NCBI GenBank assembly: GCA_965206845.1
Contig: OZ242221.1
Span: 1,088,001 to 1,152,000, forward strand
Direction: 5' to 3'
Source: Cenarchaeum sp.
Lineage (GTDB): Archaea > Thermoproteota > Nitrososphaeria > Nitrososphaerales > Nitrosopumilaceae
DNA: 64,000 bases
Positions within the stretch are counted from its first letter, which is position 1, and every line of letters begins with the position of its first letter. The translations under genes and the position numbers were made by a program. Below, piece after piece: positions 28,225 through 52,827 of this stretch. Below the pieces are notes generated by a model. It was not told where the DNA came from, did not search any database, and worked only from the letters and a program-made list of their open reading frames with translations.

Positions 28225-28332
28225 CAAAATAGAGCGATTTTCGGCATAATCGTGCAAAATTTGCTTATTTGGAAACATACCCCTGTAGGAGTTGGACGAA
28301 AAAGACTTGATTTTTAATTGCGGATCATGTCT
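28225..28332. mobile_element. Family A MITE, truncated by the IS66 end
   Basis: Ends in TTAATTGCGGATCATGTCT; interior aligns by eye with the copy at 52577-52714. Confidence 0.7.
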
Positions 28333-28370
28333 CTGATAGTCTCTTATGTGGGCAGATCCTACGTTTAGGA

Positions 28371-38056: not shown

Positions 38057-38680
38057 TTGTCGCTGATAGTATTTTTGAGGCACGGCCAGGCACTAAACAA
38101 CGTGCAGAAGATTCTTGCAGGCAGGACGCCTGGCTACGAGCTGACGCAGAAGGGAGTGGAGCAGGCCCGGGCAGCGGCACGGATGCTCCGGCCCCTTGGC
38201 ATATCCCACATATACTGCAGCCCCATCGAGCGCGCGCGCCAGACCGCCGGTATCGTGGCAGGGGAGGTATCGGCAGACGTCACCCCGGATGACCGCCTCC
38301 TGGAGCTGGACATGGGCAGTTTTACCGGCATGAGATATGACGACATCGAGCCCAGGTACGGAAACGTCTTTGAAAAGTTCTACCACGGCAGCCCGGATAT
38401 TGAGGAGAACGGCATCGAGTCCTTTGCCGATGTGAGGCAGCGGGTGGCCGACATGGCAGACCATATAGTCCGGAGCCACCCCGAGGAGAACACCCTGCTG
38501 GTGACCCACATGGATCCCGTCAAGGCCATGCTGGCAAACGTGACGGGCCTGAACCCGCACTCGCTGTACCGGCTGATAATCGCAAACGCGTCACTGAACA
38601 TATTTGCGCAGCACCAAGGCGAGATCTATCTCATGGGCCTCAATGTCGTGGACACCGCAAGGTTCAACGACGTATGGTAG
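38057..38680 (+). CDS. Histidine phosphatase / phosphoglycerate mutase family protein
   Basis: LRHGQ, CSPIERARQTA, LLVTH. Confidence 0.88.
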   Translation: MSLIVFLRHGQALNNVQKILAGRTPGYELTQKGVEQARAAARMLRPLGISHIYCSPIERARQTAGIVAGEVSADVTPDDRLLELDMGSFTGMRYDDIEPRYGNVFEKFYHGSPDIEENGIESFADVRQRVADMADHIVRSHPEENTLLVTHMDPVKAMLANVTGLNPHSLYRLIIANASLNIFAQHQGEIYLMGLNVVDTARFNDVW

Positions 38681-39426
38681 CCCCAGAGCACAAGGCTTTG
38701 TGCTTTCACCAAGCAGAGAATTCACTGACGGTGATGGCGTATTTGCCTGATGAGGATGTGCGGGCAAGAGCCCGAATGCCAGTCATCCATGTGCAAGACG
38801 GACATTGCCATGGCTGTACATCTCTTGGCAGCTCCTGCCATGGAGCAATAGGTGGTACCTCCGATGCCGAGAAAGGAGCATGCGGAGACCGGAGCCTTTC
38901 CAGACCGGACAGGTCGTTGCCGATTCTAGGAAGAATCATGGTATGGATAAAAAAAGAGGCAAGGAAGGCCGCCCACCGGATGGCAGACGGAGATATACAG
39001 ACTCGCACGAGACGGTGTGGTTCTAGGGGATATTCCAAAAAGATTCACGTAAGGAGGCATGCCAGAAAAACAGAAGCCAAAGAGAACAAAAAGTTTCAGA
39101 AATGGGTAGATGCCAACGTCAAAGGGAAGACAAGGAGCATCTGATGGCGGCTATACTTGATGGTGTCCGGCCTGCGCGCCCACCAACGCAGTCATGACGC
39201 AAGGTACAAGCCGAGATGGAAAACCTGCCATGGCACAGGACGGACCAGGCGCAGGGAGTAGTTTTGAGCGTAACGCACAGCAATCGGTTGGAGTCAGAGC
39301 CGGTGTCCTAATGTCTGCAGCCATGGTACATGCTTGTATTGATCATAAATGCAGAAAACTGCCCATTCTAGATTATACACTTTCGCGAAATCGTATATGG
39401 GTGATACATATAGGATTATATGTGCA

Positions 39427-39442
39427 GAAAAAGCTTTAAATT
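39427..39442 (+). promoter_or_regulatory. BRE-TATA promoter of the GHKL-AbiE operon
   Basis: GAAAAAGC-TTTAAATT about 24 nt upstream of ATG 39464. Confidence 0.6.
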
Positions 39443-39463
39443 CTAGATTTATGCTCCTTAGAT

Positions 39464-41476
39464 ATGGTTAAGAGAGCAGACATAACTCCAGACAAGTCAC
39501 TGATTCAAAAGCTTGGACTGGTGGGATACAGAGACATGATCCGCAATTAAGAAGCCTTCGATGCCCATAATCTTACAGAGTGCTCCAAAGATTGCAGAGC
39601 TGCTAATGTGCCTGACAATTACGAACATCTCAGAACGGAGCAGGCGATTGCAGAGCTGCTGGACAATTCCATCGACGCGAGAGTTGAAGGCAGAAAGGAA
39701 ATGATTACTGTGCGGCTAAGCCCAAATGAGAGAATGATTCAAGTCACAGACGATGGGCATGGCATGAACGAAGATGATCTGGCCGATGCAATGACGGTTG
39801 CAAAGGGCACAAAACTAAAAGGACAACTAGGGCAGTTCGGCATGGGGATGAACAGCGCGTGCTCCGCATTAGGGAAAAACTTCGTTATCGCAACATCAAA
39901 GGCCGACTCGGATGAGGAATACCAGACAGAGTACGACGAGGAAAAGTGGCTGTCAGACGAATCAAAAGGTTGGAAGAACCTTGAAATAACTGCAAGAACG
40001 TTGGGCGAAGGTGAAAAATGGCACGGCACAAAAATCACAATCAAAAAACTAAAGGTCCCAGTATATCCAAACCAGGTATCGAAGTTTAAGGAAAGTTTTG
40101 GAACACGCTATGCTCCATACTTGAAGTCCGGCCACATCTCAATAAGGATCAATACGACGTTCTGCATACCGGAAAAACCGGATGTGGTGGAAGGCAGCAC
40201 AAGCGAGGTCAAGATAGGTCTATCAAAAAGCAACAAACTCTGGGGGCATGTTGCATTATTGAAAAAAAGATCTGTACGAGGAGATTATGGCATCCATTTA
40301 TTTAAGAACAAACGATTAATCAAGGCAAATGAAAAATTTGGGTTTTCCGCACACCCAAAACAGGCACAGGTGGTTGGAGCATTAAACATGGATCACGTTC
40401 CGGTTAATTTTAACAAGAGCGGATTCATTGAAGACAGTCTGGAATACCAAGAAGCCCTATCTGCATTTCAGGAATCCCCGGAATTAAAGAGCATATTGCG
40501 CCTAGCCCAATCAAGAAGAGAGATTGTTGCATCTGTAGAGTCAGTGTTTGATTACTTTGGCGGGAAATCACCACAACAGTATTTGGATCGCAGCGTAAAC
40601 TTGAAAATTGCAGGCGAGATATTGGACAAAACACCTAGGCTGGAAGTGAAGATGGACAACAAACTGGTAGATATACGTCTGGAGGCACTGGGAGACCTTC
40701 CTCTTTATACAATAAACGGCGGCAATTCGCAAATCACCGTTGTCATAAACAAGGACAATAGAGCATTCAAATTCGTAAAAAATCCGTTATTTTTGATCGG
40801 GATGATTGCATCGGAAATAAAAATTCTTGCAACGAGTCCCAATTTTGAGAATGTTGTCAAGGAAAGAAATCGGAGCCTTGGTAAGTTTGTAGAAGAATGG
40901 TCCAAAAAACCAGGCGAAGCGAGTTTCAGGGACAGAGAAGTAGAGATACCATATATGGTAAACTACAAACTAGCCAACGATCTGTTTGAACCGCACGAAT
41001 ACCTTAAAGAAAAAATAGGGTTCAGGTTTCAGTTTACCGCACTGTCAACCCTAGTACCATACCTGCACAATTTGCGCGGTAAGGTAGTGTATACAGTGTA
41101 TACAGAACCTGGGAAGGGCGAGTACCTTGCAGACATGCTTGGCCAAAAATTTGACAGCAAGTTTGTTGTGGTAAACAAACCCAAATCCGATATGCTAAAC
41201 ATGCTGTTGCAAATCCCGACAGTAGACAGAATTATTGCGATAAGAGAATACTCGGTAATTGGGGGATCAACAGTGGCAGCTCCGGAAAAGGCCTATCTTG
41301 ATCTGGTAAATGAGGCTGGCCGGGGCGTCCCTGTAGGCGAAACAGAGCTTAGAAAAGTATTTTCAAGCATGCGGAGATACAACCTGATTGATCACACAAA
41401 ATTAAGGACATATGCCAGCTTTACCAAGAGAATAGGCGCCCTTGAGCGCATACTGGGGGACGGACTGCAGTGGTAG
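39464..41476 (+). pseudogene. GHKL (MORC/HATPase_c_3) ATPase fused to an AbiEi-like C-terminal domain; interrupted by a MITE after codon 22
   Basis: ELLDNSIDA, DDGHGM, GQFGMG, HGTKI; C-terminal VAAPEKAYLDL...IDHTKLRTYA; removing the 102-bp insert restores MVKRADITPDKSLIQKLGLVGY-RTEQAIAELLDN (636 aa). Confidence 0.8.
39532..39630. mobile_element. 99-bp family A MITE with 3-bp TSD CAG
   Basis: AGACATGATCCGCAATTA...AATTACGAACATCT flanked by CAG/CAG; homologous to 52577-52714 (reverse complement). Confidence 0.88.
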
Positions 41477-41841
41477 AGCTTCACTTCGCCGATCAGCTGA
41501 AACAGGATAACATAGAAAGAATTCTGGCAGAAAATGACTTTCAAAATGCGTATCCTGTAGAGCAATTCATAATGGATTTCGAAGCGCTTGTACATATCCA
41601 AGAAAAATTACCTGATTGCGTAGTGAGAGGTGGAATGGCCGTGCCCTTTCACATAAATGACAGTACACTACACAGGCTAAGTGTAGACATAGACATTGTA
41701 ACCGGCCATTCAAGAACCGAAGTCATATCCGCAGTGAGTGAAATTAGAAAAACGCTTGGGAGAAAAATAGACATTCCAGATCCTCATATTCCAAGGAGGT
41801 ACCAGATGGTAGGCGGAATGTGCAGACCCGTACAAACATGA
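41470..41841 (+). pseudogene. AbiEii-like nucleotidyltransferase, apparently 3'-truncated
   Basis: CVVRGGMAV...HRLSVDIDIV (GG + RxSxDxD); only 123 aa; overlaps the upstream stop. Confidence 0.7.
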
Positions 41842-42602
41842 GTGGGTTCTTCTGCAAACACGAGTGGTGGATCCGACTGTTCACACCCTGTCGCGACAGC
41901 CCCTCTCCATGCAGAGGATCAGATCTCCAGCGTACGCGCCGGACAGCTGAAAAATTTGATCGCAGAGTATGATGCCCCCGGGCACAGGATCTACAAAACA
42001 TGAAGATCCGGCCCGCATGACTCTTGCTACGGCGAACAGGAAAACCAGCAAGTGGTGCCAAAAAGAGATCCTGCCCTGGGAGATTGGGCGCCTCAGCATC
42101 TAGATCGCCAGCGGAACTAGGCCAGGAGGCTGGAAGCAAGACGCTGGGAGGTGGCCCTGCAGCCAGTCTACAGGAAATGGTGCCGGGTGATCCGGCGACT
42201 ATGTCTTGTGATTCTGCACCGATCTAGCATGACTTTGTGCTAGCCTGGCGCGCGGCTCCGCACAAAACCCACATCCAGATCTTACATAAAGTGCCGCTAC
42301 AAGCGCGAGATCGGCACCAAAACGAGGACATTTAGACACCATCTGTATTTGCAGAAGAACCTATGAAGAGCTGGCCCGTTTGAGACATGGACGGCTGAAT
42401 GCGTAAAGTATTCCACAGGCATGGCATCGGTCAAGTACCGCAGCGGATTATCGCACGACGCCGTGAATAGTGACGTCTTGGATAGTGCGTGTGTGTTTTG
42501 GTGTTCTAGCGGAATATGTGCGGATGTACAAGAAGAGCCACAACTAGGCTCCGGCACCGGAGAACCCAACATTAAATTAGCAACATAGGTGATTTCACAC
42601 TA

Positions 42603-43403
42603 TTGGAAGTGGATGAGCAGGACCTGCCGGAGCCCGGAGAGATCGTACTGGCCACCGTGACTAGGATCATGGACCATGGCGCGTACGTCAGCCTGGACGA
42701 GTACAGCGGCATACAGGGGTTTCTCCACATCTCCGAGATCGCCCCGGGCTGGATAAGGTCCGTCAGCAAGTTCGTCAAGCATGGCGAGAAGAAGGTGCTG
42801 CTGGTCAAGAGGGTGAACCTGGAGCGCTCCGACGTTGACCTCTCCCTCAAGCAGGTCTCCACGGATCAGAAGAAGAAAAAGCTGCTGGAGGTCAAGCGGT
42901 TTGAAAAGTCCCAGACGTTTTTGGAGAGCATCAAGGAGAACGCCGGACTCTCAGACGCCGGGCTGGAGAGCCTGGAGGACGATCTGTACAACAAGTATGA
43001 TTCCATATATGGCGCCTTTGTGGACGTGGCAAGAAACGGCATCGGCGTTCTTGACGGCATGGACATCTCAAAGAAGATATCAGACGCGCTCGAGGACGTC
43101 TGCAAGAAGATACGGCTCCCCTCGGTGGAGATAAGGGGCGTGCTGGAGATCTCAAGCAACCGTCCCGACGGCGTTGACGTGATCAAAAAGGTCCTGACAG
43201 GCGCCAGCAACAGCGAGCGCAGCCCCGGGGTGATGATCACGTACCTTGGGGCGCCAAGGTACAGACTGTCCCTCACCTCGCAGGACTTCAAGTCCGCAGA
43301 AAAGTCACTCAAGCCCATCCTGACCCAGATACGGCGCTCCATTGAGGCAAAGAAGGGGACCTTCAAGTTTGACCGGGAAGAGTCAAGGAAGACCAGGGAG
43401 TAG
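42603..43403 (+). CDS. eif2a: Translation initiation factor 2 subunit alpha
   Basis: LPEPGEIV, GAYVSLDEY, LHISEI, VDLSLK, YLGAPRYR. Confidence 0.96.
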   Translation: MEVDEQDLPEPGEIVLATVTRIMDHGAYVSLDEYSGIQGFLHISEIAPGWIRSVSKFVKHGEKKVLLVKRVNLERSDVDLSLKQVSTDQKKKKLLEVKRFEKSQTFLESIKENAGLSDAGLESLEDDLYNKYDSIYGAFVDVARNGIGVLDGMDISKKISDALEDVCKKIRLPSVEIRGVLEISSNRPDGVDVIKKVLTGASNSERSPGVMITYLGAPRYRLSLTSQDFKSAEKSLKPILTQIRRSIEAKKGTFKFDREESRKTRE

Positions 43404-52514: not shown

Positions 52515-52827
52515 GGGTTTATCCAGAAACTCGGGCGCAGGAGTGGCTGGCCGCATCATGTTGCGCCTGGTTGCATAGATGTGATTCGTAATTAGCACGC
52601 AGGCACATTAGAGCACGATCTTTGGCATAATCATACGAAAGTTGCATGCTTTGGAGCACACATCTGTAAGATTATGGGCATCGAAGGCCCGATTCTTAAT
52701 TGCGGATCATGTCTCATGATCTCCGCCTCCACCATTCTTGGTGCGTCCGTATGAAGCTGCTCGACACAGCCCGGATTGGTCATGCAGAACGGACGCGCTG
52801 GCTGGCGCCCGAATTTCGGGGAGAACC
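52515..52827. mobile_element. IS6-derived non-autonomous element (family C) with TSD
   Basis: Degenerate left TIR GGGTTTATCCAGAAACTCGGGCGCA, right TIR GCGCCCGAATTTCGGGGAGAACC; direct repeat TGGACGGC(G) at 52507 and 52828. Confidence 0.82.
52577..52714. mobile_element. 138-bp family A MITE nested in the IS6-derived element, TSD CAT
   Basis: Imperfect 18-bp TIR AGATGTGATTCGTAATTA / TAATTGCGGATCATGTCT; CAT on both flanks. Confidence 0.85.

Follow-up and report, generated by a model that had tools for sequence, protein, structure and literature searches.

The 64,000-nt stretch of Cenarchaeum sp. DNA dealt with here (assembly GCA_965206845.1, contig OZ242221.1, positions 1,088,001 to 1,152,000 of the forward strand; "the window" below means this whole stretch, and all coordinates are given within it) carries an AT-rich islet of about 2.4 kb at 39464-41841, comprised of two overlapping genes on the same (+) strand, which is probably an allele, now decayed, of a compact and mobile toxin-antitoxin module with two genes, of the AbiE/MenAT (DUF1814) kind and with an antitoxin fused to an ATPase. 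Systems of this kind pair a COG5340 antitoxin with a DUF1814 toxin and have been classed as type IV toxin-antitoxin systems, recently re-read as type VII. An ATPase-fused AbiE-type antitoxin is something that we could not find described, and it apparently represents an undescribed arrangement within this known kind.

An earlier note, made from the letters of the stretch alone, had spoken of an AT-rich two-gene operon, and the GC content, which is 0.47, 0.42 and 0.46 across 39001-42000 vs 0.55-0.63 in the flanks, bears this out. The overlap that it described is there as well, the frame of the second gene (gene 2; 123 amino acids (aa) as it stands, from a GTG at 41470 to 41841) sharing 7 nt with the end of the first (gene 1; stop codon at 41474-41476), and all of the motifs it quoted are present in the translations: AELLDNSIDA, DDGHGM, GQFGMG, HGT, GIHLFKNKRLI, VNFNKSGF, TALSTL, VAAPEKAYLDL and IDHTKLRTYA in gene 1, RGG...RLSVDID in gene 2.

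The putative ATPase-fused antitoxin and its nucleotidyltransferase partner

The main open frame of gene 1 (39608-41476, +; 622 aa from a GTG, with native sequence from 39635 onwards) holds, in this order, a GHKL ATPase, an S5-like domain, a middle region and an AbiEi-type antitoxin C-terminal domain. It is this last domain (40940-41473, +; Pfam DUF6577 class, with conserved FQFTALSTL..LHN and PEKA..DL..E), for which some of the gene 1 homologues reach Pfam DUF6577 near the cut-off, that ties the protein to AbiE. An AlphaFold2 model of the last 183 residues, built on a 36-sequence alignment (predicted local distance difference test score, pLDDT, 91), had AbiEi of Streptococcus agalactiae (6y8q_A; Z 9.4, root-mean-square deviation 3.2 Å) as its best match among 48,161 chains, with the 123 aligned residues falling on the AbiEi C-terminal domain; the third match was the COG5340 antitoxin Rv2827c/MenA4 (Z 6.3; 6.3-6.4 over both searches), the other top matches being DUF1814 and other nucleotidyltransferases (Z 5-7). 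An independent model of the full-length protein gave the AbiEi match again (Z 9.8), first among the rows covering the C-terminal domain.

The second line of evidence comes from stand-alone proteins sharing the domain. A profile of it, run against 1.84 billion proteins, returned 271 matches, and among the best 150 of these, 26 were fused forms (at least 600 aa), most others being 220-310 aa long with the domain at their C-terminus; E-values went down to 1e-28 for proteins carrying a winged helix-turn-helix (wHTH). DUF6577 was found in all eight of the stand-alone proteins scanned, three of which had the AbiEi_4 wHTH too, and the one stand-alone protein tested against PADLOC (L107, from a separate PF20217 genome search) matched its AbiEi model over the whole length at 7e-30. 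An AbiEii gene lay immediately 3' in 6 of 8 stand-alone loci, which come from other Thermoproteota. DUF6577 is thus what one class of AbiEi antitoxins has at the C-terminus, and the fused proteins are, by sequence comparison, carriers of this domain without the wHTH: neither gene 1 nor five of its homologues gave a match to an HTH or to AbiEi_4 at E up to 0.1-1. Both the AbiEi-like nature of the C-terminal domain and the replacement of the antitoxin's wHTH by an ATPase, as the earlier note had it, are therefore supported, the former by the structural matches to 6y8q_A and the profile link to a PADLOC-recognised AbiEi protein, the latter because the stand-alone relatives carry a wHTH where the fused forms carry the ATPase. 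Matches to Pfam T_Ag_DNA_bind inside the C-terminal domain were rejected as chance ones, since they do not reach the cut-off and the domain is folded like AbiEi.

A tree of the domain (111 sequences, with 13 rows of intermediate length excluded and 7 short fragments assigned to the fused forms by a hidden Markov model of the middle region) had the fused forms nested among the stand-alone ones, requiring two changes of state by parsimony, of which the well-supported branches force only one, so that a single origin of the fusion is possible as judged from this tree.

The N-terminal half of gene 1 is just as characteristic. Its GHKL (Bergerat-fold) ATP-binding domain (39635-40060, +; Pfam HATPase_c_3 at 1.4e-19) retains ELLDNSIDA, DDGHGM, GQFGMG and GT intact, and the residues of Bergerat motifs I-IV (E30, D33, N34, D37, D62, G64, G66, G89, G92, G94, G154 and T155) do not vary among 20 homologues, nor do D6, I7, T8, P9, D10 and K11 of an N-terminal strap, DITPDK, that would fit a dimerising GHKL protein. 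An S5-fold transducer domain follows directly (40070-40420, +), having VNFNKSGF with a lysine (K284) invariant in the same 20 homologues; Morc6_S5 is found in gene 1 at 3e-4 and stays below the threshold with the homologues included (19.5-24 bits vs a cut-off of 26.2). Residues 8-318 of the full-length model (pLDDT 80) match SMCHD1 (Z 19.1), MORC3 (18.9) and MORC2 (18.8) best, with Hsp90 relatives (Z ~15) and type II topoisomerases and MutL (~14) ranking lower. The motifs, the S5 lysine and the structural matches at Z ~19 thus agree with the MORC-type GHKL ATPase and S5-like region that had been read from the sequence. Between these domains and the antitoxin one, the middle region (40421-40939, +) is modelled as a helical linker, a four-stranded sheet and two long helices; it had no Pfam match at E up to 1 and no structural match spanning it among the matches listed for the full-length model, and an Atlas search with residues ~300-460 of the intact homologue P0001 gave unnamed clusters only (<=0.89).

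As for gene 2, its first 110 codons (41470-41799, +) are, by alignment, Pfam and PADLOC, a remnant of an AbiEii/DUF1814 nucleotidyltransferase. The fragment scores just below the threshold of Pfam AbiEii (1.5e-4; 22.2 bits vs a cut-off of 22.5) and matches PADLOC AbiEii at 2.9e-6, and its intact relatives are ~380 aa long. In an alignment of 22 rows (21 intact downstream neighbours and the window fragment), 21 match Pfam AbiEii (best 1e-14) and 20 match PADLOC AbiEii (best 8.9e-27); G54, G55, R69, S71, D73, D75, K179, K200 and D204 are invariant in the family. These scores and motifs bear out, for the family, the identification of gene 2 as an AbiEii nucleotidyltransferase. The toxin of the module would, at ~380 aa, be longer than AbiEii of S. 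agalactiae. The spacing of its R-x-S-x-D-x-D is that of R76/S78/D80/D82 in TglT/MenT3, in which S78 is given as the regulatory phospho-acceptor, and TglT is described as non-toxic when its later Lys/Asp motifs are mutated (PMC7205606). The window copy retains motif 1 (RGG) and motif 2 (R-x-S-x-D-x-D) only, and is devoid of the later Lys and Asp motifs because its homology ends at codon 110.

Conservation, distribution and standing among known systems

Intact homologues of the pair, which the earlier note had recommended looking for, do exist. The 249 homologues of gene 1 are mostly 620-670 aa long, with 98-99% of the query covered, and one bacterial relative, labelled Candidatus Acidoferrales, is among them. 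Seventy-nine loci were fetched with the gene 1 profile, 39 of which are full-type, i.e., with the C-terminal domain, all 39 being labelled as Nitrosopumilaceae, Nitrosopumilus, Cenarchaeum, Thaumarchaeota or archaeon metagenome-assembled genomes (MAGs). An AbiEii-family frame lies directly 3' in 35 of the 39, intact in 28 and split or truncated in 7 (L001, L006, L011, L013, L017, L019 and L030), and such a frame is missing from L007, L022, L025 and L027; in most of the 28 intact loci the two genes overlap or are separated by a gap of a few nt. In L001 (8435-9770) and L017 (8278-9696), the AbiEii gene is split by an insertion of ~1.3-1.4 kb, gene 1 being intact in both. Gene 1 is intact in 37/39 loci and gene 2 in 28/39; 10 loci keep gene 1 with gene 2 broken or missing, the reverse being seen in L053 only. 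Gene 2 is thus the one preferentially lost, an asymmetry as expected of a toxin and its antidote.

Of 201 genomes of the family, 22 have the C-terminal domain, spread over 8 of 27 genera; a single genome has between 0 and 6 matches, and nearly all of these lie in frames of 620-670 aa. Genomic neighbourhoods vary among the loci, and no third gene common to the lineages was found in the neighbourhoods of the related loci. A search of IMG/VR returned 30 loci matching the GHKL part only (up to ~260 residues, 21-38% identity) and no full-length relative there.

Shorter GHKL relatives of 350-423 aa, without the AbiEi domain, were also seen in L059-L063, L069, L075 and L077 (MAGs of Clostridia, Diapherotrites/Woesearchaeota, Nomurabacteria and Gammaproteobacteria), each overlapped downstream by an open reading frame (ORF) of 367-396 aa; five of these ORFs, when scanned, had no significant Pfam family, and two compared with PADLOC gave faint AriA matches only. 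These pairs may constitute another uncharacterised two-gene GHKL module. Shorter GHKL relatives of 417-557 aa from bacteria of the candidate phyla radiation, Clostridia and Woesearchaeota were set apart as a different association, having neither the AbiEi domain nor AbiEii.

The nearest known systems are AbiE (Lactococcus lactis, S. agalactiae) and, in Mycobacterium tuberculosis, MenA3-MenT3 (TakA-TglT) and MenA4-MenT4. The module resembles them in being an antitoxin-first bicistron with an overlapping toxin gene, in a toxin having, at the family level, the AbiEii (DUF1814) motifs, including the R-x-[ST]-x-D-x-D phospho-acceptor site, and in an antitoxin C-terminal domain with a predicted AbiEi fold. 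It differs from them in the absence of the N-terminal wHTH, which in those systems binds inverted repeats at the promoter and in place of which ~455 residues of GHKL and S5 ATPase and middle region are found, and in that neither of its proteins has a detectable sequence match to a solved AbiE/MenAT chain. The stand-alone antitoxins with a wHTH (AbiEi_4) and DUF6577, known from other Thermoproteota and metagenomes and covered by the PADLOC AbiEi model, share the C-terminal family and have a downstream partner, an AbiEii of 345-390 aa, of the same kind as the module's, but carry the wHTH in their 220-310 aa where the fused forms carry the ATPase.

With prokaryotic MORC/paraMORC proteins, PADLOC MzaB, MORC2, MORC3 and SMCHD1 the module shares the Bergerat motifs and an S5 domain with a conserved lysine; unlike MORC/paraMORC loci, however, it is without partner helicase, methylase or nuclease genes and has no CW domain or coiled coil, and unlike in MORC proteins, its ATPase is fused to an antitoxin domain. 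Identity with MzaB was considered and rejected: the PADLOC model matches the fused gene 1 weakly and over ~100 N-terminal residues only, no further gene is conserved beside the pair, as partner Mza genes would be, and the NCBIfam MzaB score is 39.4 bits vs a cut-off of 850. The PADLOC AbiEi models do not match the fused gene 1 proteins, for which the NCBI name is only "ATP-binding protein". A literature search gave, among the papers listed, no description of AbiE/COG5340 joined with a MORC, GHKL or Hsp90-like ATPase and no mention of DUF6577; the main text of the 2008 MORC survey (Iyer, Abhiman, Aravind; PMC2292703), whose supplementary architecture tables may list a relative, holds no mention of a nucleotidyltransferase, a toxin or COG2253. 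The earlier note's failure to recognise the architecture among described systems thus seems justified, with the N-terminal MzaB match being all that PADLOC gives for the fused gene 1. None of the three refuting conditions named in that note (a C-terminal domain unrelated to AbiEi, a pair not conserved elsewhere, a match to a named system) was borne out.

Proposed working of the module and rival explanations

The AbiE family provides a precedent for how such a toxin might be kept in check: AbiEi, according to a recent preprint (bioRxiv 10.64898/2026.01.19.700257), binds AbiEii and induces autophosphorylation of the active-site T65, whereby activity is abolished, and MenA1 and MenA3 are described as acting likewise on MenT1 and MenT3 (PMC11375011; PMC7205606). 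For the module, an intact gene 2 would encode the toxin, an AbiEii-type nucleotidyltransferase of ~380 aa modifying tRNA or other RNA and arresting growth, and gene 1 the antitoxin, whose AbiEi-type C-terminal domain would bind the toxin and, in an uninfected cell, maintain the phosphate on its invariant R-x-S-x-D-x-D serine. The ATPase would make this neutralisation conditional on its nucleotide state or on a bound ligand, and a trigger, be it foreign DNA, a viral protein or falling ATP levels, would shift the state of the ATPase, upon which the antitoxin domain would release the toxin; the protein or its partner might also autoregulate the operon via inverted repeats flanking the TATA element. 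MORC-like relatives dimerise on ATP and clamp DNA or a client, and a more specific version, in which the ATPase was recruited to sense infection and, by clamping with the help of ATP on foreign DNA or a viral protein, pulls the AbiEi domain off the toxin, which then escapes autophosphorylation and halts translation, is put forward as a tentative one that we would sooner doubt than rely on. While the domain identities, the conserved pairing, the patchy multi-copy distribution, the preferential loss of gene 2 and the damage to this copy are shown, what we infer for the module is that its gene 2 is toxic, that the antitoxin neutralises it by inducing its autophosphorylation, that ATP gates this and that it serves in defence, the last of these being plausible.

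Several observations weigh against reading the islet as a remnant of such a toxin-antitoxin module. In the structural comparison with AbiEi, which had been proposed earlier as a check, the search of 48,161 chains ranks AbiEi first, with a Z of 9.4 that is only moderately above the tool's typical best chance value of 7-8. Foldseek with the model of the C-terminal domain gave nothing at E<=1e-3 (AbiEi at rank 46, E 1.4, template modelling score 0.39). A profile of this domain had chance matches only (E 0.12 or worse) among Protein Data Bank chains, and the toxin-family profile found no solved relative among them at E up to 1. In L053, an apparently intact toxin gene stands beside a gene 1 whose C-terminal domain is interrupted by a frame break, a pattern that would not be expected if the domain were essential for neutralisation, unless it reflects an assembly error. 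AbiE of S. agalactiae, as stated in the preprint on it, gave no protection against 32 coliphages in Escherichia coli (bioRxiv 10.64898/2026.01.19.700257), and a defence role is therefore not automatic for the family. Lastly, a predicted complex of the C-terminal domain with AbiEii, for the pair of locus L002, passed weakly, with a score of 0.32 vs 0.00 for the best of three controls. In the calibration of this score, 58 of 80 solved complexes came up to the mark, as did 2 of 110 mismatched pairs; only 7 of the 80, and both of the passing mismatches, did so with a score of 0.60 or less. At least 92% of the contacts are common to the L002 runs, the partner pLDDT is at least 83, and the model may remember a solved AbiEi:AbiEii-like complex; the prediction lends weak support to the pairing.

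The same set of observations may be read differently, and the alternative that survives best, itself an unlikely one, would have the nucleotidyltransferase inert by default, with the MORC-like ATPase sensing invading DNA and activating it as an effector via the AbiEi-like domain, which would be an activator or adaptor instead of a neutraliser. MORC-type GHKL ATPases are indeed placed in restriction-modification and defence contexts by the sources consulted (PMC2292703; the Tiamat preprint), and those GHKL relatives that come closest but have no AbiEi domain are paired with other, unrelated downstream genes, which is suggestive of a modular regulator. An AbiEi-type domain, however, neutralises a toxin in every studied relative that the cited sources cover, and the pattern of decay, with gene 2 lost in 10 loci keeping gene 1 vs one locus with the reverse, suits a gene 2 that does harm when gene 1 is missing; for an effector inert by default, no such preferential loss would be expected.

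Still less probable is that the GHKL domain acts as a protein kinase on the conserved Ser of the toxin, the AbiEi domain merely docking the substrate. SpoIIAB and BCKDK are GHKL-family Ser kinases, neutralisation in the AbiE family is a phosphorylation of a Ser/Thr that is invariant here, and the fusion sets an ATP-binding domain beside a toxin-binding one. Against it speak the S5 transducer with its invariant lysine, which is typical of dimerising ATPases, and the structural ranking, where MORC/SMCHD1 reach Z ~19 vs 5.6-6.7 for kinase-type GHKL proteins (histidine kinases, SpoIIAB and BCKDK), which match over the nucleotide-binding part only; furthermore, the known AbiEi/MenA antitoxins, as far as the sources cited above describe them, do without a kinase, the toxin being phosphorylated by its own activity. 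That the pair is simply an RNA-modification unit for housekeeping or the stress response, with no role in conflict or addiction, which would be in keeping with DUF1814 enzymes being reported to modify tRNA ends (PMC7450476) and with the IMG/VR search having found no virus link, is very improbable in the face of the patchy distribution (22/201 genomes, 8/27 genera, 0 to 6 matches per genome), the variable neighbourhoods, the host-foreign base composition, the missing copy at the syntenic site of a same-genus genome, the frequent pseudogenes and the presence/absence alleles found side by side in populations.

The damaged copy in the window, its surroundings and its meaning

That the copy looked damaged had been remarked upon from the start, and both genes of the putative toxin-antitoxin module prove to be affected, gene 1 by an insertion with a stop and gene 2 by a deletion. 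The true start of gene 1 is the ATG at 39464, as deduced from the intact, 95%-identical homologue P0001, whose length, 636 aa, is exactly the one that had been reconstructed for gene 1. The first 23 native codons (MVKRADITPDKSLIQKLGLVGYR; 39464-39532, +), encoding the conserved N-terminal strap of the ATPase, are identical to P0001 residues 1-23, a search of the window's own genome placing this N-terminal piece at 39464-39535. They are followed by a 102-nt insertion (39533-39634, +) resembling a miniature inverted-repeat transposable element (MITE), which is in frame, contains a TAA at 39548-39550 and is missing from P0001; treating it as a 101-nt frameshift was rejected, as it is 102 nt long and in frame, with an internal stop.

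The insertion is an internally deleted copy of a repeat of ~146 nt (copies of 144-149 nt), with the 4-nt CAGA duplicated, one at each of its ends. The full repeat begins with CAGAGACATGAT and finishes with ATCACATCTCAG, has imperfect terminal inverted repeats (by eye) and, as a full copy, had no match in Rfam. Apart from the gene 1 copy, a search of the complete 1.65-Mb genome (G000) gave 32 matches of 66-77 nt and a single partial one of 25 nt; elsewhere in the window, the repeat is seen at 52643-52715 (-), and the 25-nt partial at 28311-28335 (-). The copies are 78-88% identical to the one in gene 1, and the three compared in full are 99-100% identical to each other.

In gene 2, the frame enters unrelated, GC-richer DNA beyond codon 110, i.e., after a deletion junction at 41799/41800, and its tail out of homology (41800-41841, +) runs to a stop at 41839-41841. 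There is no second copy of gene 1 or gene 2 in the complete own genome, and as gene 1 is interrupted by the MITE-like element and gene 2 is truncated, the module cannot work there; the window copy is, to judge by its reading frames, a non-functional remnant.

Gene 1 seems to be broken in other strains as well, as suggested by the P0001 cluster (32 members at >=90% identity), which includes fragments of 113, 224, 291, 310, 382 and 580 aa, the 382-aa and 224-aa pieces lying on one 1.58-Mb contig.

The locus was also compared with contigs assembled from four public runs, each of a different study; among the runs listed for the locus, none is given as RNA, X19 being RNA by a guess only. In all four runs, contigs join 39528 to 39631 and skip the insertion (229 matching letters on the shorter side, mismatch-free in X1 and X5). 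At 41799/41800, one X1 contig (154 nt, depth 99) bridges the junction in the same way as the window, and a second one, of depth 43, departs at 41799 with an in-frame QRDKQLPLLT that agrees with the homologues, these depths being only a rough guide to the shares of the alleles; loose contig ends at 41799/41800 were seen in X1, X5 and X13. Alleles with an uninterrupted gene 1 and with an undeleted gene 2 therefore exist beside the decayed ones. All four runs also read A for the window's G at 41470 and 41462, the former change turning the GTG start of gene 2 into ATG and being silent in gene 1.

The earlier note had also credited the operon with its own BRE-TATA (transcription factor B recognition element and TATA box), and here the element itself stands, its function as a promoter being that of a candidate. 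Read from the sequence, it spans 39426-39451 (+) and consists of a purine-rich BRE-like AGAAAAAG and a TATA-like CTTTAAAT, together at 39426-39441, ~25-35 nt ahead of the ATG, and then TCTAGA; a near-identical BRE/TATA-like element is found 5' of gene 1 in seven relatives (L001-L006 and L064). Around the TATA of the window there is a degenerate inverted repeat, AGAA-N11-TTCT, and TATA-flanking inverted repeats occur ~30-55 nt before the start of gene 1 in related loci, with arms of at least 6 nt around an 11-12-nt TATA-containing spacer in 8/38 of them. The arm types differ by lineage: CTAGAA in L005, L006 and L053, TGCGAA in L011, L016 and L018, and TGTAAA in L023 and L024; a TCCGGAA arm pair 5' of gene 1 in L008 was noticed by eye only. 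Inverted repeats of at least 6 nt are present in 24 of the 39 upstream regions (38 loci and the window) vs ~30% in shuffles, which is a weak statistic in DNA this AT-rich. Arms that differ between lineages look like operators co-varying with their binder, and this suggests, as a hint, an autoregulated operon, as in canonical AbiE. In canonical AbiE, it is the wHTH by which repeats of this sort are bound, and this part is missing from the fused proteins.

The islet lies among core genes, with a phosphatase-like ORF ending at 38680 and an aIF2-alpha-like gene starting at 42603 as its neighbours, and its flanks (38680-39470 and 41800-42600) are unique within the own genome. The same-genus genome in which the syntenic site was compared (G001; L100) is without the islet ahead of aIF2-alpha; there, a gene for a CobO-like adenosyltransferase abuts aIF2-alpha, and the window has ~760 nt of unique, apparently non-coding DNA (41842-42602) where G001 carries the CobO-like gene. 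A tblastn search of the whole window with the CobO-like and two other neighbour genes of that genome gave no match, and neither did an Rfam search of 38500-42700.

AbiE/MenAT systems are now seen as pairs whose antitoxin induces the toxin to autophosphorylate, and the fusion offers a natural variant of them, with a conformational ATPase sitting where the DNA-binding head normally is, in which the release may be gated by ATP or a ligand. For Nitrosopumilaceae, of whose immune systems little has been mapped, it is also an additional candidate defence/addiction module. In eukaryotes, ATPases of the MORC family take part in defending the genome, and a compact prokaryotic system coupling one to a defined effector could be used as a model. 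The window copy, for its part, shows the life cycle of such a module, with interrupted and deleted alleles found beside intact ones in natural populations. If the more specific version, with clamping on foreign DNA or a viral protein, is true, a passive toxin-antitoxin pair would have become an actively gated immune switch, and there would be a prokaryotic setting where MORC-type sensing acts on an effector without an intermediary; the archaea concerned are dominant in marine nitrification and in sponge symbioses.

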